Positions 1,007 to 59,967 of a DNA stretch of 64,000 nt are shown here, piece after piece (within the stretch, counting starts at the first letter, position 1; every line of letters begins with the position of its first letter). The notes beneath the pieces are model-generated. The model had not been told where the DNA came from. It was given only the letters and a program-made list of their open reading frames with translations, and did not search any database. The position numbers and the translations under genes were made by a program. Source of the DNA: Raillietiella orientalis (lineage: Eukaryota); the NCBI GenBank assembly GCA_036172245.1, contig JAYWIR010000036.1, positions 434,001 to 498,000 of the forward strand, read 5' to 3'.

Positions 1007-1309
1007 ATGGGATGCCCGAAAGAACCTTCCAGAGCCTTGTTCCCAGCCTTCCTGAGACATGCGACTACCAAAGCAATATGCAATATCATTAAATACGTTT
1101 GGGGAATAGGTGGACCTCTTACAGTAATAATAGGTGCGGCTTTGCTTGCGGTATTTGGTAGAACGCCCTGGCCTGCTCTTTTTGCACTCGGTGTATTTGG
1201 CGCTGTATTTTTTGGTGCAAAAGCTGTTGTGACAAAAGTAATCGGTGGTGCAGGTGGTACTGGAAGTACTTCCATCATGGACAAATGCGGGGCGGAAGAA
1301 AAGAAATAA
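1007..1309 (+). CDS. virB2: TrbC/VirB2-family type IV secretion pilin core lacking its native signal peptide; first ~18 codons come from non-Wolbachia flanking DNA
   Basis: TTKAICNIIKYVWGIGGPL..IIGAALLAVFGRTPWPALFALGVFGAVFFGAK matches the Anaplasmataceae VirB2 core with two hydrophobic helices. Confidence 0.8.
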   Translation: MGCPKEPSRALFPAFLRHATTKAICNIIKYVWGIGGPLTVIIGAALLAVFGRTPWPALFALGVFGAVFFGAKAVVTKVIGGAGGTGSTSIMDKCGAEEKK

Positions 1310-1610
1310 ATTCTTTTGCTAATAAATTGCTTCCATTGTACACACTGCAACTGATATTTTCTGCTTTGCACTTCTGATACCGAATTGCTCCATTGATAAT
1401 AAAAAAAATACTTCCCTTTCTCTGAGAAATCTGTTATATTCAGTTTAATTACTGACTTTCGTTGTCTCTAGAATATTTTTCCCTTGATGGCTATTTTATA
1501 ATGAATTTGTCAGTAGTTTTTTTGGTTGCCACGCAACAAAACCCACTGGACTCTGAATTTTTTAGGCTGGATTTTGTGGTCAAACCACGGCTACTTATAA
1601 GTAATTTAAT

Positions 1611-1852
1611 ATGAAAAGGACCCAATACAATAATTTAGTTTCATCTTATGCTAGAGCTCTGTTTTATATCTCAGAAGATAAACGAGGTGCTACAAGAAAG
1701 GAAGTGGAATTTTGGTTGGTTTCTTTCAAAAATCAACTTGATATCCTTATATACCTATCTCATCCTTTTTTGGTTTCTCCTGTACCCAAAAAAGAAGCAA
1801 TACTCCCTATAAATGAAAACTGAAGTGAGAACTTAGTGGAATTTATTATGTT
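1611..1852 (+). pseudogene. atpH: ATP synthase F1 delta subunit, premature stop and 3' truncation
   Basis: QYNNLVSSYARALF...YLSHP...KKEAIL..NEN*SENLVEFIM; similarity ends at ~1852. Confidence 0.85.
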
Positions 1853-1907
1853 TGAAAAAGAGCTAAAAGACAATCAATAATAAGTGATTCTTATAGGGTA
1901 TTAACAA

Positions 1908-1939
1908 TAAAAACAGCCAAAGGCCTTTGGCTGTTTTTA
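1908..1939. terminator. Perfect 32-bp palindrome, probable bidirectional rho-independent terminator of bacterial origin
   Basis: TAAAAACAGCCAAAGG|CCTTTGGCTGTTTTTA: GC-containing stem with A/T tails on both sides, just downstream of a minus-strand ORF remnant ending at ~1975. Confidence 0.6.
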
Positions 1940-2196
1940 CTCTAGTTTACAAAATCAACAAAATATTTCCTAATTCAAGCAGCTTCATCATCTCTTTTCC
2001 TGTTCATCTGTATTATTTTCAATTCCTTCCCCTCCATTTTATCCCCAACCATCTCAGGAATCATACTCATAAAACTAGGCATAATACCTCTTCATTACTG
2101 ACTATTACCCATCCTTAACAACTCCTCATAACTATCAACCAAAATTCTCCTATCCTGACAAAAACTAGCCCCCAAATTCATCATCTCCCTAAACTG

Positions 2197-2790
2197 TCTT
2201 CAACCAGGTGGCTGCATCGTCATTTAAATGACAAGTACGTGCAGAAAACCAATAAGGATGGTTATAGGTCACGCTCAGCATATAAGCTAATGGAAATACA
2301 TAATAAATTCAAATTATTCCGAAAAGAGCAAAAAATCATTGATATTGATGCCTCTCCCGGTGGATGGTCACAAGTTGCATCTCAGAAAGGAGCAAATGTG
2401 GTTGCTATGGATATCAAGCCAATTAACACGATTCATGGGGCAGAATGTATAAAATGCGATATTATAAATGGGCTTGAAATTTCGAGGGAAAGTCTGAAAG
2501 ATCGAAAATTCGATGTAATTCCACCTGATGTGGCCCCAGAATCCTGTGGTTTAAAATAGTGGGATCATATCAAAATCATACTTTGATGCGAAGCAGCATC
2601 GAACCTTGCAAAGCATTTTCTAAATCGTGGTGGTAAGTTTGTAGTAAAAAAATTTTCAAGCAGAGTCTGATAAAGATTTTTATAACGAATTAAAGAAAAT
2701 AGCTCAAACGGTAAAATACTTCAAACCAAAATAAAGTAGATCTGAATCTGCAGAAATGCATTTAGTAGGTTTAGTCTTTACCGATTCCTG
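2197..2790 (+). pseudogene. rlmE: 23S rRNA Um2552 methyltransferase RlmE/FtsJ
   Basis: RWLHRHLNDKYVQ..KDGYRSRSAYKL..ASPGGWSQV..; in-frame stops (e.g. 2557-2559) and a frameshift before the C-terminal KP..SRSESAEM motif. Confidence 0.9.
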
Positions 2791-2917
2791 AATTATATCC
2801 ACGGTCTTCGCTTATAGGTGAAAAAAGATTGTAAGCTCATTACGAAATGTTATTATAATGGCATAAGTATAAAACAGCTTTTATACCCAATTTTACCCAT
2901 AGTGTCTTTATTGAAAG

Positions 2918-3720
2918 GTGGTAAGTATGTTAAAAAATTCAAGTATTAGTAGTAAGACGAACAGTAGTTTTGAAGTGCTAAATTTAGAAGATGCATGCTC
3001 AAAAGAAGAGTATTTTTCATTAGCTGAAAAGTCTGCAAAAAGTGCAGAAGAAGCATTTGAAAAAGTGGTCGAGCATACAGAGGGTGAAAGCATCGGCATA
3101 GCTGAACTTTGGAGTGATGTAAAAAAAAAAAAAATGAAAAAGTGAAGCTTGAAGGTGGAGATGTTTTCTTCATCTCGTTATTTGCAAATTTGCAAGCGGC
3201 TGTTGAAAGCACCACTGCTTCACTTTCAGCTAAGACGGCCATCAATGGTGCTGTCGGCACAATTCATACACCAACACCTGCCGTTTCTTCGAGGACTGAA
3301 GCAGTAACACCACTTACTTCAAGGCCCGAGGTGAAAGTAGCAAAAGGACCAGTAACAAAAGAAATAGAAGGTGACCCTGTGCGGCTGCAGACAGTAACTA
3401 ATAGAGCTGTAACAGTACGAGAATATTCGGGTAAAGGAGGAGAATCGTATTCTGTATACCAGGGTAATAAAGAAATAGAAGGCATGGATATTTTTCGTAA
3501 CTGCTTAGAGCAACATCCTAACCTTCACGCTGTACAGTTAAAGGACTTTGAGCCAAAATATACTGGAGCCACTTATGTTTTTGGAAATAGTGATCAAGAC
3601 AATTTAGTATTTTCCATCAAAGCCCACCAGGCAAACCAAGAGAAACCTGGTAACAAATGGTGCGCTTGGTTCGGACCTGGTATCTATAAAAGAAAAAAAT
3701 GGGGTCTCACTCCTCTGTAG
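2918..3720 (+). pseudogene. Hypothetical Wolbachia-like protein, frameshifted at a poly(A) run (~3122-3134) and 3'-truncated at the junction with rpsM
   Basis: ORFs 2918-3145 and 3142-3720 join across an A-run; bacterial composition; family not recognised. Confidence 0.45.
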
Positions 3721-3969
3721 CATCCCATTTCCACTAGAAACTTTATATTCATAGCCACTTCTTTTCTGAGCTCACCTTCTATAGAATAATTCTGCCTAAT
3801 GAAACTGCTGATCTGTTCTGTGTCTTTCTCTTGTACTTCCGAAACACAAATCAATTTCACAAGCATAGCAAATTATGTTGGCAGTAGCAATACCTATACC
3901 ATATATATAAGTTAATGCAGAAGGAACACTTTTCTTTACTGAAACATTTACATCCGCAATACGTGCCAC
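3705..3969 (-). pseudogene. rpsM: 30S ribosomal protein S13, frameshifted and 3'-truncated
   Basis: GTG start, ARIADVNV...LTYIYGIG...[26 protein letters not shown], then abrupt loss of similarity. Confidence 0.9.
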
Positions 3970-4028
3970 TGGTACTGCGATTCTTTATTAATAGTAACTC
4001 TTAATTTGTACCATAAAACAATCCAGAG

Positions 4029-4140
4029 TCAAACTAAATTGCAAGAAATTTTGCTTTCGACCTCTTGTCTTACCTGATCAACATTAAGATTAGCATTGAT
4101 CGTTAGCAATCTGTCTTTATAATATTCACGTAAAGTCTTT
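4029..4140 (-). pseudogene. adk: Adenylate kinase, C-terminal fragment
   Basis: [34 protein letters not shown] directly upstream of rpsM, the canonical adk-rpsM order. Confidence 0.7.
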
Positions 4141-4563
4141 ATTTATTGCCAACTTTTGGAGTACCATGGATGACTAAAAGACCTCCAGGAGTTAAGATTC
4201 TTGGACCTATTATATCTTTTGGCATTGGTGATTTATCATTCGGGTACTGTCCTACAGAGAATGCGGTTTTTGTATTTCGCTGTTTTTGTAACTTCTCAGC
4301 ACACCACTGTTTGGCATTTTGGGTGGCATCTACAGTACCCTCAACTAAAGTCCAAAGACTGAGTTTGTCCCCTTTCTTTTCCATGTAAAGGTCATGCCAA
4401 TTTCCCAATTTCTCTTCTTTTATTCCAATTATTATCTTGTTCTCGCCTAAATTCCCCATGTAGAACTTGTCTTGATGAAATTCCCCATCAGGAAGTAAGA
4501 TACACATTCCTTAATATCATAAATTAAAAATTTTTTTATTTCTTTTTGAGATGAAAAATCCAT
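4139..4563 (-). pseudogene. Phage WO RepA/AAA-family ATPase, N-terminal part (ends at Walker A)
   Basis: MPKDIIGPRILTPGGLLVIHGTPKVG, truncated at the P-loop; frameshifted N-terminus. Confidence 0.75.
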
Positions 4564-5250
4564 AAAACCTCCCTTTTTTCCAATAATTTTACTCAACGTA
4601 TTTTTTAAACGTTCAGAGTCCAAGTTAGCGAGCTCGCAAACAGGTCTGAAAGATTCTGTGCTGTGGATCCATGGATAAGCTTCCTCTCGAAGCTCTCTAT
4701 TCTTTCCTGTTACATCCCGAATAGCTTGTTCTGCAACAGCAACCCACAGCTTCTCTTCATCGTACTTCGGAGAGGGATCCAATCAGATTCCATGCTTTCT
4801 GGAGTAACGACTGCAGCAATTCTGTTCCTGTTTCCGTATCTACTATCGGCTTCAATACCAACTTTTGCAGTAAACTCGAAACCGTTGAAATCAGCTATAG
4901 AGTTCATTTTTCTAGCAATAACTGCTTTTTCTGAAGTGTCATGTGGATGAATATTCCGGGCTGAACCCCAAAATACTTCTAAGCATAGAACGACCAGATT
5001 CTCCCCACGTATCTTCTGTACCTCCCACTTTGCCACTTTTAATACCAATCATTTGATAAATCTTATGCTTTGCATATGGATCTTCAGTGACGGTAAACTC
5101 TGCATTTAAGTAAATGCTTCCGGTGGTAAGCCTTCTTGTAAACCAACATCCGTATCCTGCCGGCTTTATTGCCATTTTTACCATTCGGTATGAAACTGCT
5201 TCGCTGTTTCACTTTGTTAAAATCAGTTAAAAAATCCTGCAGTATAAACT
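4564..5250 (-). pseudogene. Two phage WO replication-module hypothetical genes (DUF669-like and a small downstream ORF), frameshifted
   Basis: TGSIYLNAEFTVTEDPYAKHKIYQMIGIKS...TWGESGRSMLRSIL...FEFTAKVGIEAD..GNRNRIAAVVTP, followed by EEKLWVAVAEQAIRD...VCELANLD; typical WO order upstream of repA. Confidence 0.6.
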
Positions 5251-5274
5251 CTCCTATAAATTGATTTCAAATTT

Positions 5275-5771
5275 TAGCTATTCCATTGATCTAGGAGCTG
5301 CCAACGCCCAACGACAAGCTTGCTTGGTACACGCTCACCATTACGCAGGTCAAATACCATCTGACGTACGGTGCTTTCCTCGTCACGAGCAAACATCACC
5401 ATGCCAGTGCTGTAGAAATCCCCGCAAAGATCCAGCACCACTTAGGCCCTGAAATGGATCCTCTTCAAGCATTTTCCTAGATAATTTTTTCGTATGGTGG
5501 GTCAACACTATGCCTGCATCTGGATTGACAGCATTACGTAGCTTTTCAAGTGTGTTTTGTAAAAAGAACAGCATTGCACTATTATCATTTTCATTTCCAT
5601 ACCCACTGCTAAAGGTGTTCCGCGATGGATCTATGGTTAAAACATCAGGTTGAAAGAGTTCTTTCACAGTTTCTCTGATTTCCCTTATTTCGTCATGGCT
5701 AAATGAGAGTTGTACTTTAGGGGGAATTATGAGATTACTTGCAGCTACAGCCAAAAGTTCTTTGTCGAATT
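5275..5771 (-). pseudogene. Phage WO RepA/AAA ATPase, C-terminal part, displaced from its N-terminal part
   Basis: PDVLTIDP..N...GNENDNSAMLFFL...GIVLTHHTKK...DPFQGLSGAGSLRGFY (Walker B and RepA C-terminal motifs). Confidence 0.75.
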
Positions 5772-5849
5772 TTAGCAGCGCATGATTTGTTTTTCCTTCA
5801 GATTCTACCACAGTACACTTGCTTCCTTTCTTCTATAACTCCATTGGTA

Positions 5850-7031
5850 TCAGTTTGTCCTCTGATTCAGAACAACCTCTATTCCTTCCTCTCTTACCCA
5901 TACTCCCTTTATTAATCTGTTCACTTCTTCCTTCTGTTCTACGGAACTTAAATTTTTCCATTCTTCCCCATTTTCATGTAATTCCTGCGCTCTTTTCATT
6001 ACTTCTTTTTCTCCTTCACCAGCTACTATACTTCGCCTCTTTGACCCACAGCCTTTTCCTCCCAAATGATTACTACATATATAATATCGGCACCTCTTGT
6101 TTTCCTTTTTTGCATACGTTAGTGCCATTTTTACTTTGCAGCACCTGCTCCTTATTATCCCCTTTAGTGGCGCCTCTTCTTAATACTTTTTTGCCTTCAT
6201 GCGGCTGATTCTTTAGTAATAATTGTGCTTTTTGCCATTTTTCTTCTTCTAGTATCTCTTCATGCTTTCTCCGTACTGTTTCTCATAATGCCTTTTTTTT
6301 CTCATATATATCGGATGTGTTTTTATTCTCCTCACCGTTGCCTTCTTAAATAGCTCTCCTCCATGCACTTTTCCTGATTTCGCTTCAAATCTCTTTGCTC
6401 GGTATCCTTCTCTGTTTAACTCCCTTGCCAGTTCTGCCATCGATTTTAGCTCCATATACCTTTCATATACGGGTTTTACCGTCTTTGCTTCTTTTTCATT
6501 TATTACTAATTCTTCATCTTTTACATCATACCCAAGCGGCAAAGTTCCTCCCATCCATAACCCTTGTTCTTTTGATGTTGCCATTTTATTCGTTACGCTT
6601 TCCACTATCGTTTTTCTTTCCGGTTGTGTTGCTCCCAATAACACTGCTTGTACAAATTTTCCCATTGGTGTGTGACTGTCAATTAACTGTGTTACTGCTA
6701 CAAAACTTGTCCGGTGCCTCCTAAAAAATGACTTTACTTCTATCTGTCCTTTGTTTCTCTTGACAACCTTTCTACACAGCGTATACTCTGCCACACAGTC
6801 TATTTCCCCGGCTTTTACATCTTCAAATAATTCCTTTTTCGCTGGTTTGTTTTAATGGCTCCCTGGAAACCCTCCTTCATCGTACCTTTTCGTCAATGTT
6901 ACCCATCCTTCTCGACCTTTTATATACTCTTCACATGCTGTCCTCTGTGCATCTAAACTATTCGACTTTTGCTCTAGTCCATCTTCGTTTGATTTCCTCG
7001 TATACATTGCACACCTTACCTCTTTTAGCAT
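5850..7031 (-). pseudogene. Phage WO large serine recombinase, multiple frameshifts
   Basis: MLKEVRCAMYTRKSNEDGLEQKSNSLDAQRTAC...GLWMGGTLPLGYDV...YRYYIC-like; split across ORFs 6852-7112, 6249-6794 and 5850-6128. Confidence 0.9.
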
Positions 7032-7039
7032 TTTTCCTC

Positions 7040-7461
7040 TCAATCTCCCTTCCAATAACGCATCCCAAAAAGCAAAAGGCCGTTGTAACTCATTCCCATT
7101 ATTTCCTTCCACTGCTGATAATGACCACTTCTTTGTAGATCAGACCATTATCGGTTACCATTACCTCATGAGTTTCCTCACCTCTCTTTAGTATGAATTC
7201 CGTTCCCGCTACTGGTAATTTATCGCTACGTATCCTTTTTCCCTTCTCTAGCCGTCCTGCCAGATATTTCAGTCTTTTTGCACTTTTCCTTGACATCTCT
7301 CCATACGCTTCTCCCTGTATCCTATATGCTAACCACGGTACCAGATATTTCTTTGTGCATCTCGGTGCTTCTTTCCCAAATGCTTTCCTCCATATTTTTT
7401 TCACTTCTGCTAAGGGTTTGTTCCCTAAATTCCTTACTTCTATGTCTTCCTTTTTTTCCAT
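7040..7461 (-). pseudogene. DUF2924-domain protein (phage WO, upstream of the recombinase), frameshift near 3' end
   Basis: IWRKAFGKEAPR..KKYLVPWLAYRIQ..AYG...GTEFILKRGEETHEVMVTDNGLIY; C-terminal IMGMSYNG.LLFG continues in another frame. Confidence 0.8.
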
Positions 7462-7736
7462 ATAATCACCCCTTTCCTAGCCACAGCACTTTTAAATTTC
7501 TAAAAAGGCTGCAGCAACTTATACCAACATTCGTTATTGCAAAGGCAAATAAAACCCACCTCAATTTCGCCAAACCCTCCAGCTGTAGGTAAACTTTTCA
7601 ATTTGTTTTCACCATTAGGATTCATGCACAGCTTCTAGCTCTTCCCTTGACACTATTACACCTGCTGCCGCTTTTCCCGACACACTCCTTGCTTTTTCTA
7701 GGAACTCTTTTTGTTTATTTGCGATTTTTACTTTCT

Positions 7737-8837
7737 TTAACACTTCGATTTTCCCCAAGTCCCACAACGGGTGGGGTAAATTCATTTTCTAATTTTGTCA
7801 TTCACACTACAATCTCATTCATACTGTCTTAAACTTTGTTTTCACTTGGAAGTCTGCTTTAGGGTAACACAAGTTCCGCACTCAGGGTGGGTCCCCCGTT
7901 GTTGTTTCCCGGGCGTCGTCCTCGATCCTCTTCAGGATGTAACGGTACGTCCAGGCTTGCAGTCTTCCGCAATTCCTAATGCTGATCTCCCTCTGGATTA
8001 GTCCTTCCAGGATCTCCATCGGGGATGCGGCTGTTCTGGCTTTCCTCATCTTCCACCACCGCACAAATATAGCGGTGATGAAGAGAGCGATGGTCGTGCT
8101 TACCATGGGATTGTAATAGGGAACATTTCCATTTCCCTGGAACATCCCGGCAAGTACTCCCCTCACTGAGGTGGTGGTCAGTCTTATGATCCTTTTCAGG
8201 ATCAGTCAGTCGTGGAGCAATGTGGGACACGCCAAGATGTGAAGCCTTGTGTCTGTCTCCACATGCCTTGCAGTCTTCGTCTTCCCGTCTTCCGGTAAAG
8301 TGCTTCAGTCTGGACCCGCTCTGGATTCCTCCATGATAGAACATCAGGAGTTTGTCCTGAGTGTTCAGCGGAAGGTCACTCCTCCAGAGCGTCGTGCTGA
8401 TCGCTAACAGGTTGATCCAGTCACTCCCGTAGCGATCGGCTGCTTCTTCGAGGGCACTGATGCCTCTTTGGTCTTTAATTATTTTTCGGAGGTTCAGCAT
8501 GTTCACCCTGGACCACGCATAGTTATCGTGGTACTTCCACACTTCGCTCATTCTGTGGGTGAATCTTCCAAACATCATCTTTATGCACCGAAGTATACGA
8601 GTGTAATGAAGGTATCCTCCTCTTCTCCATTCCTGGATTCTTCGCAAGGTAACTCTGGGCCGCTGGTGATTCCTCGTATCCGGGGGCACTCGGAGCATCC
8701 AAGGGATCAACAGGATGCATGCCTCCTGCCAGAGTTACCTACTTCTTGGAACGATCTTCAGCTGGTGCTTGCGCACCAGCTGTTGTTTTCTTCTCTAGGT
8801 GGGATCGATGGTAAGCCAGTCCCCTGCTCAGCCTAGT
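7737..8837 (-). mobile_element. 5'-truncated L1/Tx1-clade LINE copy (ORF2 C-terminus plus 3' UTR)
   Basis: Diverged paralogue of 8838-9960 with the same C-terminal zinc-finger region and near-identical terminal ~45 nt. Confidence 0.9.
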
Positions 8838-8992
8838 TAGTTTAACACTTCGATTTTCCCCAAGTCCCACAAGGAGTGGGGTAAATTTATTTTCATTTTT
8901 TTTAATATCATTCACACTACAGTCACATTCATACAATACACTACTTGTTCTGTATTCACTGGAAGTCCTTGGGATTCACTGAAGTTCTGCAC

Positions 8993-11900
8993 TTAGGGTG
9001 GGTATGCGGGTGTTTGGTCCCGGGCCTCGTCTTCAATCCTCTTAAGGATGAGTCTGTACGTCCAGGCTGCTCGTCTTCCACAATTTCTTATGCCGATTTT
9101 CTTCTTCAGGAGTCCTTGCAGGATCTCCATCGGAGGTGCGGCTCTCCTGGCTTTCCTCATCTTCCACCACCGCACCAGAATGGCAGTGATGAAGAGGGCA
9201 ATGGTCGTCCTCACCATGGGATTGTAACAGGGAACATTACCATCCCCCTGAAACATCCCGGCTAGGATCTCCATCGTGGAACTGGTGGTGCGTTCAATGA
9301 TCCGTTTAAGGATCAGCCAGTCGTGGAGCAATGTGGGACACGTCAGGATGTGAAGTCTGGTATCCGTGTCTCCACATGCTAAGCAGTCTTCGTCTCCTCT
9401 TCTTCTTGTGAAGTACTTTAGTCTGGACCCGCTCTGGATTCCTCCATGATAGAACATCAGGAGTTTGTCCTGGATGTTCGGCGGAAGGTCACTCCTCCAT
9501 AGGGTCGTGCCGATCGCCAACAGGTTGATCCTGTTGCTTCCGTAGCGATTGGCCGTTTCCTGGAGGGCACTGATGTCTTCATCTTGATCCTTTATCATTC
9601 TTCGGAGGTTTGTTTTGGTTACCCTGGACCACGGAAAGTCACCGTGGTTTATCCACACTTAGCGGGTCCGGTGGGTGAACCTACCTAGCATCTTCTCGAT
9701 ATACCGAAGTATACGAGCATGATGTAGGTGGCCTCCTTTTCTCCATTCCTGGATTCGTTGCAAGGTTACTCTGTGCCTCCGGTAGATCCATCCTCGGGTA
9801 TCGTCCGGGACCGGAAGCATCCAAGGGATCACGAGGATGGACTCCTGTTGCCAGAGTTCCCTGCTTCTTGGCACGATCTTGATCTTGTACTTTCGTACCA
9901 GCAGTTGTTTCCTCCTCCAAGTCGGGTCGATGGTCATCCACTCCCCTACTCGGCCTAGCAGCGCAGTCATCAGACCTTTCGAGTTGTTAAGCAGCATCGA
10001 GTAGGCCCTATGCGCCGCGTACGGCCAGTCGTCCCATTGTTCGGCGATATCCAGGATGTGTCGCGTGTCCATGATTGCCATGGAGTGTGCAAGCGACTTC
10101 ATCCTGGTTCCACCTTCTTCTTTGGGACGACATAGGGGTTTCAAAAGAACTCTTGGGCGATATTTGCCCCATAATGTCTTCCTTTGCAGTTTTTCCAGCT
10201 CCCTCGAGGTGTCCCTTTTCACTCTCGCAAAGGCCGTTCCGAAGAGCACCTTAGGAAGGAGGACTCCATTCCAGAGGTTGGCCTTGCGTTTCATTCCAAG
10301 GTCCTGTCGGGTGTACTTCGCTGCCTCTTTCGCCGTTTTTCCCAGGGTTTCATCCCACAAAAGCTTCGACGCAAGGCCGTCGCCAATGTAGACTCCCAGG
10401 TATTTGGCTGTGTCCACCGTTCGGAATCCTCTCCCCGTGAGGACGGAGAGGTCCAGGATTCCGACGGGCAAAAGTTGGCTTTTCCTTGCATTGATCTTTA
10501 ATCCTAGTCCTTCTTCCATGAGCGTCACCACTTCCAGGAACGCACGCTGATTTCGTTCTCCTTTGATGAAGAAGAGAAGGTCATCAGCGTACGCCAGGTG
10601 GGTGAGCCGCTGGTCGTCGATCTGGATGCCTTGGAGGCGTCCACTCTTCTCGATGTACGAGGACAGCGCCTCCATGTAAATAACGAACAGCATAGGACTT
10701 AGCGAGTCGCCCTGGTGGACTCCTCGTTCCATCCTAATTGCTGTCGTGTCTTCGCCGTTGATCTTGATTCGGCAGTACTGGTTCTTGAGTACCAATCTCA
10801 CGAAGGTGCTGAAGTATTCCGGAAGGTCCAGCTTGTCCAGACTCTTCAGCAGCATCCCATGGTCGATGGAGTCGAAAGCCTTCTCCATGTCAGTGAACAC
10901 CAGCACCAGGTCCTCGCCGACGTACCGGCTGAGTCCCACGGTGGCCTGGGCACACTTGACATTGTCCAACATGTGGCGTCCGGGCACCGCACATGTTTGG
11001 ACCGGAGCGATGAGCTTCGGCATGACCTTGCCTAAGCGGTTGGACCAGATCTTCGCCAACCACTTGGCATCGGAGTTTAGGACGGAGATTGGCCTCCATT
11101 GGGCGACCTGCGTGAGGTCGCCTCCTTTCGGCAACAATCTCATCCGACTCTCGTACAAGGACTCGGGTAGTCTTCCTTCTCCACGGATGCAGAGGGTGAG
11201 CTGATGGAACAAGCGCAGGTAGGCGTGCAGGTACCGCTGATAGTGCGTGATGGGTACACTATCAGGGCCCGCTGCCACGTCCTTCCGCAGTTGCCCAAAA
11301 GCCGTTTTCACCTCATCTTCGGAGAAATACTTCTCCAGTTTGTCTCTCTGGAGATCTCTTGTCCTCTTCTCGAGGTAGCTCAGGAAAGTTCTCTGCATAG
11401 ACTTGCACGTGTGTTGCCGTCGGAAGTGTTCTTCGTAGTGCTGATGGAATGCTCCCACGATGTCTTCCGACGTGTGCTGCTTCTGGCCGCCGTACTGGAT
11501 GCAGAAGATGTCTGTCGCCAGATTCTTCTTTTCCAGCACGCCGACCTCTTCTTTCACATCATTGAAGACGTACCGACTTTCGTACTGATCGTAGTACTTG
11601 GAGAGGGAGCGGTCTTGGATGTTGAGCTCCTGGTACGCTCCTGGTACGCTTCTCTTGCCTCAGTCGCTTGCAAAAGTACTGCATGTTGCAGAACAGGTGG
11701 ATCCGATGCTTCAACCTGTCCCAGTCGGCGACTCTGCGGATGGTGGTGTCCCGCAGAATCGCCTCGATCACCTCTTAGTGACAGGGAAGCATCTCAAACC
11801 AGGCGGGCATGCAGATGAGCGCCACCCTAGTGGCCTTTCGCCGTCGCGGATTTTCCGTGCGGAGGGAGAACCGAACCAAAGGGTGATCGGACAGCAGGTG

Positions 11901-12524
11901 AGGAATGTCGCGAAAACCTTGGATTCGGTTGTCGATCTCCACGCTATGAAGGACGTGATCGATCGGTTTGTGGCTGGCTGTTCGCCACACGAGTCCGAAG
12001 TCGTCGGACAACCGTCGATACGCCTCTCTTCCTCTGATGTCTTGACGGTACTTGATGTGGTCTTGAATATTCAGGTCATCCGCGACGATGACCATGTCCT
12101 TCGGTGCTACACGTTGGCGGAGTGCCTCGTGGAGAGCCTCCACGCACCGATGCTTGTTCTTGTGCGGTCCGTACACGTTCACCAGAAACAGGTGAACGTT
12201 GTCGGACCAGGACAGTCGCACGCCGATTATCCTTCCAGCGAGTGGACAGAAGGTTTCCAGAAGGGTGTGGACGAGCTTGTTCTTGATGAGGATCGCCACA
12301 CCCATGGTCTTCCTTTGTCCCTCGCTGACAAACAGTTGCCCGTTGAACCGGCGTTCCATCTCCTGGGCGTTTTGTTGCCCGAGACGGTGGGTTTCCTGTA
12401 GGCACACTACGTCTTGTCTTGCGATGGTCCGCAAGATTGTCTTCCTTTTGACTTGGTCTGTCAATCCATTGATGTTCCAGGAGGCGATGTTTAGCCTCCT
12501 GGCGTTCGCTAGCGACGAGGACAT
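8993..12524 (-). pseudogene. LINE ORF2 (endonuclease-reverse transcriptase) with two in-frame stops and one frameshift
   Basis: SWNINGL, VCLQET, IDH, SDH (APE); WRPISVLN, GVHQGDSLSPMLF, YADD, KYLGV (RT); CLACG..HILTCP. Stops at 11775-11777 and 9659-9661; frameshift at ~11630-11650. Confidence 0.92.
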
Positions 12525-12539
12525 GAAAGGGTTCGAAGT

Positions 12540-14378
12540 CTAATGCTTCGCTTTCCTCAGCTTTTTCTGACGGGGAGACCTTTCGCGTCTCACCGTCGAG
12601 GAAGCTGGCTTCTCACTCCCGGCTTCGCTCTCCATGCCGGTGTGGTCTGTGGACTCCCGGTCCGTTTCCATTGTGTGTTCTGCCCTGGCGATCGCCTTGC
12701 GCGGAAGTGTCTCGAGGGAGACCTTCGCGCAGTACTCCGCTTTCACTTCGAAAAGCTGGTTCTCTAGCTTTTCGCGCTTTTCTTGGATCACCAGGGTGTT
12801 GATTCCCTGTTGGGTTTCATTGATGCGAGTCAGGAGTTGCTCCTGCTGCATCTCACTTTTCTCGCCCTGCACTTCTTCCGCAAGCTTCACCACCTCCTCG
12901 GTGAGCTGCACCGCCTCCTGCGATGTCGGAACGGTTTCGGTGATTTCCATCACCTCACCTTCCGGCACACCCTGCTTCTCGCCAACCTGCTCTACTTCGG
13001 CCTTCTCGCCAACCTGCTCGCCAATCTGCTCCTCGACCTGCGCAGCAGAGGATTCTTGCTCCTTCACGAGCATCCTCCTCTTGCCGCCCTTCCCCACCGT
13101 GGTGAAGCCGTCCGCCGAAACTGGGGCTGCCTCCTTCGCCTTCCTCTGCTTCATCGCCCTTTGAGGTTTGATTACCTCCTCCAACACCCGTGTCCTAACT
13201 GGGGATTGACCCCGCATCGTTCTGTAGTTTGCAAACTCCGAGCAGCACCACTTTGCATGCCCCGGAGACTTGCAGAACGAACACACCTCCGGCATGCTGC
13301 AGTCCCGCACCTGGTGGCCCTGCTTCCCACAGCGGAAGCACTTGGCCCTCGGGCAGACTCGCTGCCGGTGTCCAAAGGTTTTGCAGCCGTTGCAGAAAAC
13401 TGGCTGAGCCCTATATCGAACGGAGACTCCCATGTCGTCTCCGTCGAAGTAGATCATCCCAGGAACCTGGGCTTCCTCCTTCAACTTCATCTTCACCGTC
13501 GCCTCCCCCGAAAAGATCTTTCCCGATATATTGTGGAAGTTGCTGTCCAGTACCTCGCCGTACTGCGACAGTTTCCTCCACAGAGCCCTTTGGGTGACGA
13601 ACGGCCCGAGTCCGCTCAGGAATAGGGTGGTGTACGGCATTTCACACACTATCCTGCCCTGAATGTTGATCCCTTTTTCAATTAGGGATTCCCTTATTTC
13701 TTCACAGTCGGTGTACACTGTGAATCCCGAGGTGTTCGGGACGATCGCCTGCAGGCGGTCAAAGTCCACTTGCTGTTTGTAGAGAGCCAGGTATACCTCT
13801 TTGATGTTGTTCATTTTTATAAGTCCAGTCTTGAACGTGACCGTCTTCACGTTCGGTCCTAGTTTAATTATGGGCTCGTCGATGTCTCGTATCGGCCCAG
13901 ACTCTGGCTTCCCGAATTTCCTCTGCGGCTGAGTGGTCGCCGTCCCAGCCGCCACCGCCGCATAGGAAAAAGCTGCTGCCGCTGCCGGTGGCCGCCCCAC
14001 GGTCGCAGCCACCGCGCAAGATGGCGTCGCGTCACTAGCAACGGTGGGGCCTAAGGGCCCTCCCATCGCTCCGGCGACCGCCGTCTCCGGGGACGCCGCC
14101 GCCGCCACCGCCATCGTCGTCTCCACCGCTTCCATCGGAGTCGCGCCGGAAGAAACACACGATTGCCCTACCTCCATGGGCTGTGGCTTCTCCGTGGCTC
14201 CCATCCACCGCTGCTCTTGCATCTTGACGGGGTGCTGCTGCACCGCCGCCAGGGAGGGTCGCGAGTCCTCCACCTTGGACTCCCTTTCGCTGCTTCTGCT
14301 GCTGCAGTCGCTGTGGGACGTCCTTGGTTGCGCACTCACTGTCTTTTCACTCAGCACTTGCCCTCTCGGGGCACGCAA
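12540..14378 (-). CDS. LINE ORF1 nucleic-acid-binding protein (intact); true start may be a downstream ATG
   Basis: TTLFLSGLGPFVTQRALWRKLSQYGEV (RRM-like); CNGCKTFGHRQRVC, CFRCGKQGHQVRDC, CSFCKSPGHAKWCC; coiled-coil C-terminus. Confidence 0.9.
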   Translation of the reverse strand: MRAPRGQVLSEKTVSAQPRTSHSDCSSRSSERESKVEDSRPSLAAVQQHPVKMQEQRWMGATEKPQPMEVGQSCVSSGATPMEAVETTMAVAAAASPETAVAGAMGGPLGPTVASDATPSCAVAATVGRPPAAAAAFSYAAVAAGTATTQPQRKFGKPESGPIRDIDEPIIKLGPNVKTVTFKTGLIKMNNIKEVYLALYKQQVDFDRLQAIVPNTSGFTVYTDCEEIRESLIEKGINIQGRIVCEMPYTTLFLSGLGPFVTQRALWRKLSQYGEVLDSNFHNISGKIFSGEATVKMKLKEEAQVPGMIYFDGDDMGVSVRYRAQPVFCNGCKTFGHRQRVCPRAKCFRCGKQGHQVRDCSMPEVCSFCKSPGHAKWCCSEFANYRTMRGQSPVRTRVLEEVIKPQRAMKQRKAKEAAPVSADGFTTVGKGGKRRMLVKEQESSAAQVEEQIGEQVGEKAEVEQVGEKQGVPEGEVMEITETVPTSQEAVQLTEEVVKLAEEVQGEKSEMQQEQLLTRINETQQGINTLVIQEKREKLENQLFEVKAEYCAKVSLETLPRKAIARAEHTMETDRESTDHTGMESEAGSEKPASSTVRRERSPRQKKLRKAKH

Positions 14379-15014
14379 AAATTGCCGCGGCAGTGATGTT
14401 ACTCACTGCCTTGGCGGGGTATTGGGTAAAGTTTTCAACTAGCAATAATCACGGCTCAGTCGCCTTCCTCGCCTCGTGCCCTTCTCCTTTTTGACCAAGT
14501 CCTTAAATGCTGCGGTTTAAATACAAGTTTGAATTTATAATTTCCCTGGGATTTTTGTCAAAGTGCGAACTTTGACATTTTCCAGCTTTCTGGATCATGA
14601 GCACAAAAATAGCCGTTTCACGTTAAAATACAACATTTTAATTACTATGGAAAGACTGGATCCCGGTGTCGAAGCACTGGAATAACACCCTTCCGGTGAG
14701 AGCTGCTCTCAAACTACAATGTTCGTTGCACCCTGTATTCCATTCCATTCCATTAGCTTTACTACGCTCGTTATCTTAGGTAGAATAATGGTCAGTTCTG
14801 GGCTGTTGGCTAGACTTTGCCTAGCTTGGATTTCCACCAGCTGTGCTCCAAACGCTTCTCTTGGAGCACACATAATGTACCTCCTTGGTTTAGGTTAAAA
14901 ATTTGGACTTGAAGCAGGGATTGAAATTTGGTGCGAACGTTGTCTGCTGAAATAGGCGCCACCCACTCCTGTCATTCCGATGTCCCTGTTGTCATCCAAG
15001 TAATCTATTTCTTC

Positions 15015-15612
15015 GTCGAGTAGATCAGTGGAACTTTCCCACCAGCCCCTCACAGAACTGTGCATGAACCTCTCGATTCACGCAGCTCTTCTCATTTTTA
15101 GCCTTTACATCAAAGACCTACCTTAATTATTTGCTCCTCCCATTTCGGTTGACAAATAACTAAAACCCAAATGACTCAGTCCCTTCGCTCCATTTCCATT
15201 ACAGAAACTTCCTCGCTACTGTGCGCCCCTGTTTTTCGCATTGGTACTCTCATCCTCAGAGATCAGCTCTTTGGATTTCTCCTTTATCATCGAAACGACG
15301 GGTTCCCGCAGTTCTACACAATAGCTCAAAATAGATTCGCGCCACTTCTATGCCGGACGCCACCTACCCAGTAAACAAGTTCCCAGTAGCCAGGTTAAGA
15401 TGAAACCCCTGGTTTTGACGTCGTCTATGGCCTTTCGACACTTCTTCAGTGGTTCATTTTCATTCGCCTTTCTATTTCACACATGACGCATAATTGCGCC
15501 TCTTCCACAACGCTCACTACCGTGGCCCTTGACCTAAGCAGCTTATGGCTGTTTGAAGCCTGCTCTTGTAGACCGGCTCCGAGGGGTTCAGCTTACCGCT
15601 TCTACGGCAAAC
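15015..15612 (-). ncRNA. Bacterial group II intron ribozyme with internally deleted RT ORF
   Basis: The minus strand ends in domain V (GAGCTGCGTGAATC-GAGA-GGTTCATGCACAGTTC) and domain VI ending ...TACTCGAC. It begins GTTTGCCG. An SD-like GGGAGGAG and a few degenerate ORF-start codons jump almost directly to domain V. Confidence 0.85.
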
Positions 15613-15660
15613 TCATCCCAGTGCCCTCTTCGTGTCATCCTAGTGCCCCGACACTGGGAT
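15613..15660. repeat. Wolbachia palindromic element (WPE)-type repeats; similar copies at ~14655-14690, ~14970-15000 and ~17971-18022
   Basis: Recurrent gtcatcccagtg...cactgggat / gtcatccaagtag motifs. Confidence 0.7.
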
Positions 15661-16158
15661 ACGATTTCCATAAAACAGTGTGTTTTAACATAACTTTTAT
15701 ACTCACTAACCTAATAAAATTCCTGGATTTCAGCATCACGCGCTGGAATGACATCATTTGTTGCAAAAACAAATGTTCGTTCATAAATTGCAACTAGCTA
15801 TAAATATTAAGAAATTTACAAAGCAGAAAAAAAGGCAAAAGAATCCCGTGGTAGAAGCTGCTCACTCTCTAATCCTGCAAATTGGCGTACTATACTGTCT
15901 GAAAGGACTTATAAGCGCGTTTCAGCTTGCATAGGTAAAAACCAACCTAGAAGTCTAGCTAAAATTAATATAGACATGAGGTGCACATAGTGCAAAAAAT
16001 GAAACATAAGACACCAACTACGTGATACTTTCCTCGTTTAATCTGCGCAGATTGAAGCTAAATGAATAGCTCTAATTCTATGATAAAGGAGCTGGCGGAA
16101 TTTGTCAAGCAGTTTTTTGTTCTGTTTCTATGCTACTTGGATGACATTGAAAATAGGA

Positions 16159-16735
16159 TTACTTTGCACAATTACTTAGATATTCCCGGCTCCCTAGCTT
16201 GGTTACAGGCAGTTTTCTCAATTCTACAGGAAGCTCCGCCTCACTAAGCTCAAGCAAAGATATAACAGGAAAAGGCAATTTTATTTCACCATTCCTCTTG
16301 ATTAGAGCAGCTTCAGCAACGACCTTACCCCCCTCCCCTTCTGCACATTCCACTGCTTCTAGTGAAGATTTGCCCGTGGTTATCACATCTTCCATCAGTA
16401 ATATTTTCTCACCCTTTCTGATCTCAAATCCGCGGCGCAATTCAAACTTGTCATTGGCGCGCTCGCAAAACATCGTCCTGATTCCAAGCTGCCGGCCAAT
16501 CTCATAACCCACCAATTGCGGGAGATAGTATTAAATCCATTGAGCTACTTAGCTCTTTTCTTATCTTGTTTGCCAATAGCTCGCAAACTTTCATGGCTCC
16601 GCTTGGATTCTCAAAAATCGTAGCGCATGGTATATACGTATCGCTATGCAACCCTGATGAAAGGACAAAATGCCCGTGCAGAATCGCTCCAGCTTCCTCA
16701 AATTCCTTCATTATTGAATCATCTTTGTCTAACAT
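16159..16735 (-). pseudogene. pyrE: Orotate phosphoribosyltransferase, frameshift at ~16505
   Basis: GAILHGHFVLSSGLHSDTY...SPAIGG / VGYEIGRQLG...FELRRGF..LLMEDVITTGKS (PRPP-binding motif). Confidence 0.92.
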
Positions 16736-16741
16736 CGTTTT

Positions 16742-17545
16742 CTAAGTTTCATCTTTACATTCTTTATTGGTTATATGAGTTACGCAAACATCAGACCACG
16801 CATTTATTGCAGTTTCACACACATCGATGATTGCGTAAATAGGCAAAACCAGCCCCACAATATGCAAAGGAACGTTTATTGATACAAGATAACCAGTTGC
16901 CATAAAATAGCATCCCATCGGTACTCCGGCGTTGCCAATCGCAGCCCCTGTAGCTGAAAAAATCCATATAAACATTTCTCTGAAGAAAAATTGCTGTGCC
17001 CATTCATCTCTGCAAAAACATTACTGCAATCAAAATAAACGCAGCACATGCGTTCCTATTGACTGTTCCGCATATTGGTAAGATAAAGGACGACAGTTTC
17101 TTTGGCACTTTTAGTTTATTTTTCACGCAGTCTATGGTCGTCGGCAGTGTTGCACTGGATGATTTAGAAAAAAAATGCAAGTGTGAGCGCTGGCATTACT
17201 GCTTTCAGCGTTTGAATTGGTGGTGTGCCTTTATACCGCGTAAGTAGCGGTAAAACCAGAAACGCTTGCACGAGATTTGCAGGCATTATGCAGGCAAAAT
17301 ACCGCAAAAGACTGTGGAACTCGCTGCCACCTCTTAACTCGTGCAGAAAAACACGTGATAAAAGACCACACAGCGAGTAGAACAAATCTGAGTAGCCCTT
17401 GAGCAATTTTAAGTAGTGCAGAAAGCACGTGATGTAATATATCCTGTTTTCCTCTTGAGAGTGAAATAACAGCTCCATCCATAAAAAAAGCGATCACTAT
17501 GCTGCCCATAACGTTATTTTCAAGAAAGACTTGCACAAAAGAAGG
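16742..17545 (-). pseudogene. Dicarboxylate/amino acid:cation symporter (DAACS), 5'-truncated with multiple frameshifts
   Basis: FLENNV; KSSSATLPTT; GTVNRNACAAF; AAIGNAGVPMG; IDVCETAINAWSD. Confidence 0.85.
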
Positions 17546-18022
17546 GAGTTCAAGTAATTAGGAAAGATTTACATGTTATTGCAGAATTTGGAGTAGATAA
17601 GAAAAAACATCTTTTTGTTTTCTCAGAAAGCAAAGGCAAAAAGTCCAATTCCAATTTGGAGGAAGAAATGAAGAATATAGGCAACCATATAGGCAAAAAT
17701 TTAGGGTCAAGTACAACTAAGTTTCTAACAGGTAGAGAAAGGAGAAGAAAAAGAAAAATGAGGATCAGAGGTGGAAGTTTAGTCTTAGTAGAACATAAAA
17801 CAGGCAAGAACCCTGAAGTCAAAGATTTCAAAAAAAAACAGATTGCAGAGTAGATGAAGATTTAGATAGTAGTATAGTTAAGTTAGCTTAAGAAGTTAAG
17901 AGTGAAGATATTGATGATATAGAAAAGGCTATTGAAAAGACAGCATCTGGGATCTCATTTCACTTTATGATGGTGTCATCCAAGTAGCCCCACAGTGTCA
18001 TCCCAGTACTTGATACTGGGAT

Positions 18023-18818
18023 GGCTTTGTCACACAGCACCTTATGCTGTGTTGATTTATGACAAATTCATGTAACCATTTCAAACCTAGCCATGCCAAT
18101 GTCAGTAAATTTATTAAGCAAACAACATTTTATTAGCAGTTCTTTTTCACGATTTATCTCAGATTTATTCCTCAAGCTAAATCCAAATATTCGTTTCAAC
18201 CTTGAGAAGAACCCTTCAATGTAAGATCTTTTCCCATAATTTACTCTCCTTTTCCACTCTTTCACACCGTCTTCACTGTATGATTTTATTAACCTAATAG
18301 CAGTATTCCTGTCAGAAATATAATCTTTTTTCGGATGTTCTGCCGCGCCATTTTTTGGTAGAACTTTTGTCTTTATATCATACTCCTTACACAATTTATA
18401 AACTTTGTGCCTGTCATATGCCCTATCTGCACACAGTGTTTTTATAGCATGTTTGCAACCTACTTCTTCAATCAAATCGCAAGCTCCATAGTGATCAGAG
18501 TAGACGCCGTAACTGTATTTTGCAGATACAGCTTTTTTATTATTTATGTTCAACATTGCATGTAGCTTCTTTACTTACCTGTTCATAACCGCGATACTTT
18601 CTATCTTCTCTATTTTCCTTGCTGTGGCCAGGAGTGTTGTTATAAATGCTGATACTTGTGCTGTCTATGGCACTTTCAATACCTTCCATGTTGCTTTTGT
18701 CAGCTCCGCAGTCATTGATCTTGATATTAAGTTTTTTAAATCTCCTCGAAGCTTGTGAATAGCTGATGACTGTCAAATTTTTTCCTATTTGTTGCAAATA
18801 TCCTTGTGTAAATCCGAC
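18023..18818 (-). mobile_element. IS5-family (IS903-group) insertion sequence, frameshifted transposase, left end missing
   Basis: Terminal GGCTTTGT at 18023; SYSQASRR, AIDSTSI, ADRAYD, YGKRSYIEGFFSRLK. Truncated at VGFTQGYLQQ, which marks the right edge of the NUWT. Confidence 0.9.
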
Positions 18819-18819
18819 T

Positions 18820-58228: not shown

Positions 58229-59967
58229 ATGACAGAAACATTACAAAAGTGGAGTACTCATTTCAGTGTAGTAGAGCTCATAGTAAGGAAACAAGTTCCC
58301 AGGTAAAATATTGACTGTTGGACATTCTCCATTTTCTTTTAAACATTACTTGCTAACGTAAAAGACACGTAATTTCTTTGTGTGTGACCTATGCATAGCA
58401 GATAACAGCAAAAACGTTGCTGTTTTCAAAATCTCTCATTTGAGATTGCAGAAAAGGTAGCCAAGCAGTATGCAGATCAGCTGTTGAATGATGTGACCCT
58501 GATAGTAGGTTCAAGCAGAGTGCCTGCAAATCGCCTTGTTCTATGTACATCTTCAGATGTCTTTCAAGTTGGTGCCTTTTTTTTTAAAGTTTTTGTAAAT
58601 ATTGTTTAGGTCATGCTTATGAGCTCACGATGGATAGAATGTCAACAGGATTACATTAAGTTACAAGAGGAAGATGCATGTTCTCAAGTGTTTCAAGATT
58701 TTATACATTACTTCTACACTAAGAATATTCAGTTAACACTCAACACTGTATTGCCTATGTTTATCTTGGCTGACAAATACAATGTTAAGGTGGGTTTGTT
58801 TTTTAATCAATTTACCCATCAGAATATGTGTACATATAGGACTTAATATTGATCTGCCTTGAGTATATGGAGGCGAACATGGTTTCTGCTTGTTACAGTG
58901 GAAACCTGATATCTTGGTACCAGTGTTTCTTATCAAGGAACCTTATGATCATCAAGGTTTGCATGGCAATGAGTCTGTTGCAATCAGTGTAAATCTGTTC
59001 ATACCTTTTAGAGGTATGAGAAATTCATGAAGGCAAACTTTGGTTTGGTGATCTTAGCAAGTGATTTTCTTACCATGCACGTGGACATTCTGGTTGATTT
59101 TATTTCCAGCACTGATCTGGTGGTAGGAGATGAAGCTGCTTTGCTAGAGTCAGTGTGTAAGTCTTTGGAAACTAGTGCTCATTTTTTCAGTTTAGTGGTA
59201 TATGTGCATGGCTGAAGGAAAGGAATAAAGAAGACATGCATTTAATTCTGCAGCATATCAGATTTCCCATGATGACTGTTGAACAACTAGCAAAGCTGAC
59301 ACTGTTACCACTGGCTCAAAACAACCCTGAAGTCTTCATGAAATTCATAGCATTGGGCATGTCAGCTAAGTGCAATGACTGGAAACTATATCAGCGTCTG
59401 AGCAACAATGATGTCCTCTGTCTTGCTCGAGTGTACACTAGATGCAGTGCTATTTCAGAATATTTGGTTGAATCAGTTGCTGTACCATATGACACTGACT
59501 GTTCATACTCTGTCATTGAGCGGGATCTGTCTCATAGACCTGTTCCTTACTCACCTTCCAGAACTGGACATTTTTCAGAACTAATATGGAAATTGCAGTT
59601 GTATCCCAGAGGAATTTTGTATGACCCGTCCTTTATATACACTCATGAAGGCATGAGGACAGTTCCTGGATTTTTGATCCCTGGTCTTCATGTAAAAATC
59701 CAACTAATATCTCTGTTAACTGTGAACACGCGAATTTCTCTTTTACTTTTTGATGAGAGCAAGGACAATATGGAATTTGTGAGAGAAGTTTTGCATGTTA
59801 ATCATATATTTGCTGCAAATTCTCCATCCTTGAAAATTTCTCCTCCAATTCAAGCTTATGAAACATATTTACGAGATGGTGAAATGCTCAAAATAATGAT
59901 TGTTATACGAATACAAAGTGTGTGCAATACTGATAGTAATTCTAATCAAATTGTTGTTACAAACTAA
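58229..59967 (+). CDS. BTB/POZ-BACK domain protein (BTBD17-like); first exon and start uncertain
   Basis: LNDVTLIVG...ANRLVLCTSSDVFQVMLM...FIHYFYT...LADKYNVK|DL..C..YM; SDF...ISSTDLVV.DE; LQHIRFPMMT; exons joined by GT-AG introns. Confidence 0.85.

Follow-up and report, generated by a model that had tools for sequence, protein, structure and literature searches.

Introduction

Fragments of organelle genomes are patched into nuclear chromosomes, where they form the nuclear mitochondrial and nuclear plastid DNA segments (NUMTs and NUPTs), which subsequently decay and are invaded by transposons. The stretch of DNA considered here, a window of 64,000 nucleotides from Raillietiella orientalis (positions 434,001 to 498,000 of contig JAYWIR010000036.1, GenBank assembly GCA_036172245.1), contains a comparable patch, made of decayed and transposon-invaded fragments of an intracellular genome, although in this case the donor is a facultative bacterium, Wolbachia. 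Nuclear Wolbachia transfers (NUWTs) are themselves well documented. The Wolbachia fossils of Dictyocaulus viviparus are presented as short fragments with disabling mutations that co-assemble with host genes, and the GC contents of inserts and genome were given there as alike (34.9 and 34.5%, respectively; PMC4046930). A study from 2025 used nuclear Wolbachia fragments to rebuild the infection histories of 22 filarial species (PMC12693587).

The patch in the window is like these D. viviparus and filarial fossils in consisting of short, co-assembled fragments with frameshifts and stops, in having evolved neutrally and in recording an infection (PMC4046930, PMC12693587). It is unlike the D. viviparus fragments, which match the GC content of their genome in the same source (PMC4046930), in that its fragments have drifted to a higher GC content, and it is unlike the genome-wide sets described for D. 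viviparus and the filarial species in being a single 11-kb patch, which includes DNA of the prophage WO. With the insertions of Drosophila ananassae (PMC4558871) it shares the donor genus and, presumably, the route into the germ-line nucleus. However, these insertions, which are recent, are reportedly much larger and close to the living strain, whereas the Wolbachia DNA of the window is small, scrambled and 5.9% diverged by changes of its own.

In our judgement, the region is, with a probability of about 90%, a NUWT, that is, dead Wolbachia and phage WO DNA lying in an animal chromosome and later split by a retrotransposon. In kind, it is an ordinary nuclear transfer of the well-documented sort and not a new kind of system, and what is distinctive about it is the WO prophage content, the strong drift toward GC and an insert composed of a retrotransposon and a U4-like sequence.

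Wolbachia DNA in the Window

Nucleotide matches to Wolbachia genomes assign to this bacterium positions 1059-7746 and 14597-18818 of the window, which amount to about 10.9 kb in two blocks, in agreement with the roughly 11 kb of bacterial sequence that had been announced in an initial, sequence-only reading of the window. That reading had placed the edges at 1060, 7737, 14502 and 18818. The outer pair was recovered (1059 and 18818), but the inner pair was not, since the Wolbachia matches end at 7746 and resume at 14597; the inner positions proposed correspond rather to the 3' end of a retrotransposon (7736) and to the outer end of a U4-like sequence (14496). None of 60 Wolbachia genomes matched the interval 7747-14596, and none of five matched 18800-58799. 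The whole-genome searches covered positions 1000-58799, and positions 1-999 were compared with retrieved Wolbachia loci.

The same layout is seen in the base composition. In 2-kb windows, the GC content is 0.36-0.41 over positions 1001-8000, 0.51-0.56 over 8001-15000 and 0.38-0.43 over 15001-19000, with values of 0.44-0.52 beyond these zones and a range of 0.34-0.60 over the rest of the window as a whole, and the DNA flanking the Wolbachia blocks has a GC content of 49-50%. When the stop-to-stop frames of both low-GC zones and of the GC-rich insert were scanned, NCBIfam matches were obtained in 10 of 27 frames and Pfam matches in 16 of 31. The low-GC zones contained matches to RlmE, uS13 (two frames), PyrE (two frames), the SDF transporter, the IS5 transposase (two frames), the TrbC/VirB2 pilin, a large serine recombinase (three frames) and DUF2924. 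Every NCBIfam match scored far under the whole-protein cut-off, which is usual for fragments.

Decay without Selection

All ten genes of these blocks that were aligned to intact orthologues proved to be truncated, frameshifted or stopped, and an accessory gene is frameshifted too (in the stop counts given here, the natural stop codon is counted in whenever an alignment extends to the end of the gene). The essential genes rpsM, atpH, adk, rlmE and pyrE, already singled out as broken from the sequence alone, are all among them. The virB2 fragment lacks its first 94 nucleotides and carries a 6-nucleotide deletion, the atpH remnant comprises the first 247 of 561 nucleotides with one premature stop, and rlmE contains one 1-nucleotide insertion, which shifts the frame, and four stops in 201 codons, about three of them premature. 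What is left of rpsM is the first 278 of 369 nucleotides, with an 8-nucleotide deletion, and the sodium:dicarboxylate symporter has lost its first 381 nucleotides and suffered four frameshifts. In the WO recombinase there are six frameshifting indels, one of which is a loss of 250 nucleotides. The intact essential genes and the bacterial gene order that characterize a contig of living Wolbachia were not found.

The mode of this decay can be read from private changes, defined by parsimony as those in which one row of an alignment differs at a site where all other rows of the clade agree. They were counted in four segments (virB2-atpH, rlmE, rpsM and pyrE-transporter), which comprise 2777 sites within 1059-4144 and 15981-17540. 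The window differs privately at 164 of these sites (5.9%), and 92 of the 164 changes are A>G or T>C. Its private substitutions are distributed over the three codon positions as 44:56:44, not distinguishable from equality (chi-square p = 0.37), whereas those in 25 rows of living relatives are distributed as 46:48:109 (p = 6e-9), the difference between both sets being significant (Fisher p = 1.9e-5). Similarly, the ratio of AT-to-GC to GC-to-AT changes is 114:32 in the window versus 112:114 in the relatives (Fisher p = 2.5e-8). Private changes occurred at 6.2% of AT sites and 3.5% of GC sites, and from these rates an equilibrium GC content of about 0.64 is derived; a neutral spectrum so inclined to GC is unusual for an animal genome.

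Nearly all the private divergence of the window has arisen, therefore, without selection at the protein level and under a regime of mutation or fixation unlike that of Wolbachia: flat codon positions, combined with the bias from AT to GC, denote neutral drift outside a bacterium. This is the pattern predicted for a nuclear copy, and a contig from a live symbiont cannot give it. The notion of an old and genuine insertion, advanced in the sequence-only reading, is thus supported by the damage to all examined genes, by the lack of a third-position excess, by the AT-to-GC bias and by the presence of a eukaryotic insert that is absent from 60 Wolbachia genomes.

The Donor: A Sampled Wolbachia Clade and Phage WO

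When the translation of the pyrE piece was compared with a species-level genome collection, four loci were found: one in a metagenome-assembled genome labelled as a Rickettsiales bacterium (87% amino acid identity), two in named Wolbachia (79-80%) and a spurious match of 16 residues. The Rickettsiales-labelled genome belongs to the same GTDB genus as both named Wolbachia. Indeed, positions 15981-17940 were matched by all 60 genomes of this genus, the named Wolbachia included, at 68-89% nucleotide identity, the top eight (87-89%) being those that we designate G041, G046, G043, G001, G013, G033, G029 and G044. Six of these eight nearest genomes were tested on the other chromosomal pieces, with identities of 83-92% for G041, G013, G043, G046 and G033 and of 86-89% for G001, in comparison with 77-83% for the two named Wolbachia.

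In a maximum-likelihood tree built from the pyrE-transporter piece (22 rows, 1595 columns), the window falls within a Wolbachia clade of 11 rows with a support of 100/99. The end branch of the window measures 0.07, among the longer ones of the clade, which otherwise holds 10 sampled species-level Wolbachia genomes. Since the window is nested among them, a new supergroup is not indicated, and the donor is a Wolbachia of an already well-sampled clade. The suggestion that the transfer could record a supergroup not known before is, therefore, not borne out.

The donor also carried phage WO. All 12 phage records that match positions 4100-7700 are of phage WO (66-82% nucleotide identity), and the recombinase piece is 64-71% identical in amino acids to its five best-scoring proteins, four of which are named Wolbachia recombinases. 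What is present of this phage is a dead 3.6-kb fragment, with the recombinase and its DUF2924 neighbour, in which all genes are frameshifted.

Mosaic Structure of the Two Blocks

The order of the pieces in the window (Table 1) is not that of a Wolbachia chromosome. In G013, a complete relative, the pieces map to around 472, 84, 228 and 75 kb, whereas in the window pieces from such distant loci are only 0-3 bases from one another, and almost all of their edges run through a gene. The piece at 1059-1854, with the 3' two-thirds of virB2, the spacer and the start of atpH, reaches a best identity of 91%. That at 15795-17540, which comprises a repeat, pyrE and the 3' two-thirds of the transporter, reaches 89%, and the WO pieces at 5770-7516 and 7621-7746 reach 79-82%. 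The rlmE gene of the left block and the pyrE gene of the right block are separated by only 5-8 kb in three relatives, one of which shows them in the order and orientation of the window, and nothing else from the window interval between both genes matches the corresponding interval of these three relatives.

Table 1. Features identified in the window, with the matches on which they are based. Open reading frame is abbreviated as ORF and amino acids as aa; codes starting with G are genomes of the comparison set, with their contigs given as C.
Feature	Position	Strand	Evidence and state
virB2/TrbC pilin fragment	1059..1309	+	Pfam TrbC 2.2e-08; 91% identity to G041
atpH (ATP synthase delta) 5' fragment	1611..1854	+	Aligned to 186-aa ORF of G013
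Gene tail and rlmE piece	1849-1914 and 2191-2858		Best identity 90-94%
Unmatched 242-bp stretch	1949..2190		No match in 60 Wolbachia genomes; about 26 bp between the two genes in relatives
rlmE pseudogene	2191..2858	+	NCBIfam RlmE 3.9e-27 (95 bits, cut-off 269); 90% to G041
Accessory-gene fragment	2915..3720 (piece 2859-3720)	+	61% aa identity to 337-aa ORF of G019
Short piece like G041:C77	3604-3709		DNA match
rpsM fragment	3704..3977	-	Two frames matching NCBIfam uS13 (2.6e-08, 2e-14); 92% to G013 and G043
adk 3' tail (presumed name)	4037..4144	-	Last 122 of 651 nucleotides; alignment to a relative's ORF
Phage WO gene fragments	4146..5774	-	71-76% identity to WO records and G003; one with a Pfam AAA_25-like domain
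WO large serine recombinase pseudogene, three frames	5770..7139	-	Pfam Resolvase, Recombinase, Zn_ribbon_recom
DUF2924 gene, neighbour of the WO recombinase	7099..7476	-	Pfam DUF2924 2.2e-18; 2 frameshifts
Tail of next WO ORF, last Wolbachia DNA before the retrotransposon	7621..7735	-	82% to G003:C66
Non-LTR retrotransposon copy a, 5'-truncated	7736..8836	-	79% identical to 8841-9958; common 3' terminus starts at 7736
Non-LTR retrotransposon copy b, near full-length	8839..14359	-	Pfam zf-CCHC, Exo_endo_phos, RVT_1
U4 spliceosomal snRNA-like sequence	14360..14495	-	Rfam RF00015 over the full model (positions 1-138), 57 bits (gathering score 46)
Short multi-copy Wolbachia repeats, start of second block	14597..15003		Match in 46 of 60 genomes, many copies each, up to 91%
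Bacterial group II intron without protein-coding part	15009..15894	-	Rfam RF01999 71.8 bits, RF00029 52.3 bits; 79% to G013
Dispersed Wolbachia repeat of about 320 bp	15795..16132		Dozens of copies in G001, G002 and G003
pyrE pseudogene	16159..16741	-	Two frames matching NCBIfam pyrE (1.3e-28, 1.3e-19); 11- and 15-nucleotide deletions
Sodium:dicarboxylate symporter fragment	16742..17540	-	Pfam SDF 1.3e-15; 89% to G041
Internal piece of a large (>700 aa) Wolbachia gene	17544..17940		86% to G001:C112
IS5-family transposase, N-terminally truncated at the right Wolbachia edge	17996..18818	-	NCBIfam IS5 1.4e-26 and 2.4e-05, two frames; 79% to G002 copies
WDR19/IFT144 gene, many short exons	49741..54569	-	Pfam WDR19 propellers, TPR, IFT144 zinc finger in order
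BTB-BACK-TRAF (BTBD17-like) gene	58610..59967	+	Pfam BTB and TRAF_BTBD17

Several assignments in the left block deserve a comment. The atpH fragment matched no Pfam or NCBIfam family and takes its name from our reading of the G013 ORF, and the gene tail next to the WO fragments is presumably adk, as judged from the gene order. The accessory gene matched neither a Pfam nor an NCBIfam family. It is frameshifted near 3120-3145, so that the N-terminus is read in a different frame from the rest, and the C-terminal 67 residues are missing. Among the 60 Wolbachia genomes it occurs in only two, and in full length only in G019 (locus L082, 1261-2274).

Dispersed repeats are found in the right block. 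Several short families (90-330 bp), at 14597-15003 and 15795-16132, are represented dozens of times in most genomes of the genus and are absent from the smallest Wolbachia genomes (0.6-1.0 Mb). The rlmE gene and the pyrE-transporter pair were found in three different arrangements in G013 (L090), G043 (L091) and G046 (L092), which suggests that in these genomes they lie at a rearrangement-prone spot flanked by dispersed repeats.

The Retrotransposon and U4-like Insert

The two Wolbachia blocks are separated by DNA of another nature. The presence of a eukaryotic long interspersed nuclear element (LINE) inside the bacterial sequence, as foreseen from the letters alone, was confirmed, in the form of two copies of a non-long-terminal-repeat (non-LTR) retrotransposon accompanied by a sequence similar to the U4 small nuclear RNA (snRNA), and with no match in any of the 60 Wolbachia genomes. 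Along the minus strand, copy b presents, in this order, an ORF1 frame of 620 codons that contains a CCHC knuckle, an apurinic/apyrimidinic (AP) endonuclease and a reverse transcriptase, the latter matching solved LINE-1 ORF2 proteins with an E value of 1e-43, so that the element is a LINE of the AP-endonuclease type. Its ORF2 contains, as deduced from the frame coordinates, one frameshift and one in-frame stop. Both copies are arranged head to tail (7736-8836 and 8839-9958), are 79% identical and have an identical 3' terminus, which suggests a repeated insertion of the retrotransposon at, or next to, an earlier copy.

The U4-like sequence, which has kept its central and Sm-site regions but has a damaged 5' stem, adjoins the 5' end of copy b in the same orientation. 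Chimeric retrocopies of an snRNA and a LINE, made by template switching, are known, such as the U6-L1 chimeras of mammals. The arrangement in the window is like them in that the snRNA stands directly 5' of the LINE and in the same orientation. It is unlike them in that the snRNA is U4, the LINE part is near full-length and flanking duplications are missing. The junction between U4 and the retrotransposon may, by analogy, represent a template-switch chimera. When 7701-7900 was compared with 14401-14650 for a target-site duplication, no word longer than 8 bases was common to both. The two 8-mers in question, one of them inside the element, are close to the chance expectation and were rejected.

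Proposed Origin and Alternative Explanations

These observations could be integrated in the following model. The DNA of a Wolbachia strain carrying a WO prophage would have entered a germ-line nucleus in the ancestry of this animal, and its fragments would have been joined into a chromosome as a patchwork, presumably by end-joining repair. The transferred DNA would never have been functional in the nucleus and would have undergone neutral drift, accumulating about 6% of private substitutions together with many indels and stops, while its composition shifted toward that of the GC-richer host. Later, a non-LTR retrotransposon of the host would have landed in it, leaving two copies, one of them with the U4 snRNA-like sequence at its 5' end. 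The Wolbachia origin, the damage to all examined genes, the neutral and GC-ward substitutions, the eukaryotic insert and the animal genes in the same sequence are direct results, whereas the mechanism of joining, the choice between one complex insertion and several, and the order of events are the parts of this model that we infer. Decay is far milder in the retrotransposon than in the Wolbachia genes, which makes it most likely the later arrival; the insertion of the LINE into pre-existing Wolbachia DNA is deduced from the degree of decay, with no clean empty site.

Several facts weigh against this account. In the assembled sequence, the Wolbachia blocks are joined to the LINE, to the U4-like sequence and to the WDR19 and BTB genes, and this union with host DNA is, at this level, a property of the assembly. 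Of the public sequencing runs, only one had sampled words in common with the window (8%), which is evidence in neither direction. To the left of 1059 there are only 1058 bases of non-Wolbachia DNA, in which none of four frames gave a Pfam match and no gene was recognisable. The codon-position and direction counts derive from four segments and from parsimony against 5-8 relatives. Around the retrotransposon, a target-site duplication was looked for and not found, which leaves a single event unproven for U4 and LINE, and the WO sequence to the left of the LINE does not continue on its right side, the flanks being contiguous in none of the genomes examined. The dependence on the assembly and the mere 1 kb of host-like DNA on the left speak for an assembly chimera or a contamination, with reads from a living Wolbachia misjoined to host sequence. 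Such an origin is nearly refuted by the pattern of decay: a truncated rpsM, an atpH fragment and frameshifted rlmE and pyrE genes are incompatible with a living Wolbachia, the private changes show no third-position excess and are biased from AT to GC, unlike those in the 25 rows of living relatives, and pieces of distant loci abut almost without spacing.

It could also be conceived that Wolbachia fragments were inserted independently, at different times, around a retrotransposon that was already present. This would fit the lack of contiguity of the LINE-flanking DNA in any Wolbachia examined, the lack of a target-site duplication and the private divergence, which differs somewhat by segment, the extremes being 58 changes in 1190 sites and 45 in 511. 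However, all chromosomal pieces indicate one donor clade, with G041 most often nearest, and rlmE and pyrE, which the retrotransposon now separates, are close neighbours in three relatives, once in the same order and orientation; this proximity favours, and does not prove, one original insertion that was later split. Moreover, the 5.5 kb of the retrotransposon bear roughly a single frameshift and a single stop, in comparison with 4-6 frameshifts per 0.8-1.5 kb in the Wolbachia genes, so that the retrotransposon looks younger. We thus regard several independent insertions as unlikely. Even less room is left for the idea that one of the pieces has been kept as a working host gene. The obvious candidate is the 200-codon frame at 3118-3720, the longest open frame in the Wolbachia DNA, yet, relative to the only full-length relative (the 337-residue ORF), the part encoding the N-terminus is in another frame and the last 67 residues are missing; besides, we estimate that the survival of one frame of 600 nucleotides among some 12 fragments is unsurprising. 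A function of this frame is, consequently, highly improbable, and a nuclear transfer of Wolbachia and WO DNA, probably a single insertion split afterwards by a retrotransposon, accounts best for the region.

Host Genes and the Remainder of the Window

Spliced host genes had been placed about 28 kb away from the bacterial sequence. The genes are real (WDR19 and a BTB gene), but the distance has to be corrected to 31-41 kb from position 18818. The WDR19 introns that were read measure about 38-58 bp and have GT...AG ends, in accordance with the compact-intron animal genome that had been postulated; introns of such extreme shortness may be of use in narrowing the host lineage. For three of four WDR19 exons tested, the best solved relative was human WDR19, and for the fourth it was a protist IFT144 chain. 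A BTB exon and a WDR19 exon, the latter compared with longer proteins, found no match at E <= 0.001 in a word-indexed protein collection, and two look-ups in the ESM Atlas gave no information on the taxon. A full HMMER search of 1.84 billion representatives with the BTB exon yielded 14 weak matches at 23-46% identity, in which the 46% corresponds to a fragment of only 69 residues and the best match is 29% identical. Ten of these relatives were looked up, and the three that bear names are arthropod proteins (from an ostracod, stick insects and a ladybird), at 24-29% identity. Judging from these genes, the host would be an animal whose introns are very short. It is probably an arthropod, although the named relatives offer a hint and no firm placement. 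Dictyocaulus viviparus, whose Wolbachia fossils are clade F-like, was also considered as the host, but a genome of 34.5% GC with inserts of like composition does not fit the GC-rich flanks and the GC-ward drift of the window.

In this part of the window, the host genes sit in DNA with a GC content of 34-40%, and the transposon-like DNA has 50-60%. The interval 19205-40102 includes about 20 kb at 45-60% GC with many long open frames on both strands, and none of the 40 frames of at least 100 codons scanned from it gave a Pfam match; its only two internal repeats, both weak, pair 31298-31503 with 37174-37381 and 30430-30727 with 37909-38201. A 210-codon open frame at 45398-46030 (plus strand) has no Pfam match either, and its end may resemble the N-terminal region of piggyBac-type transposases. 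Finally, comparison of the window with itself revealed a near-perfect palindrome of 54 bp at 48926-48979, 89% self-complementary.

Implications

The patch was AT-rich at the start and is functionless, and it thus provides a direct view of the neutral substitution spectrum of the host, which is strongly GC-ward. It is conceivable, if rather doubtful, that the host lineage is one without recorded Wolbachia, a possibility raised by the two host proteins for which no close relative was found in very large protein collections; the patch would then be the fossil of a lost symbiosis. Separately, and on similarly uncertain ground, the pattern of decay would make the patch an undisturbed neutral record of an exceptionally strong drive toward GC in the host genome, for instance biased gene conversion or an unusual mutation spectrum.

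Sequences of this kind also have practical consequences, as they are wrongly removed from animal assemblies by contamination filters and can falsely signal a live infection in polymerase chain reaction and metagenome screens. As molecular fossils, such patches reveal which Wolbachia clade once infected the ancestry of the host, in the present case with phage WO, and they allow infection histories to be rebuilt even where the symbiont is gone.

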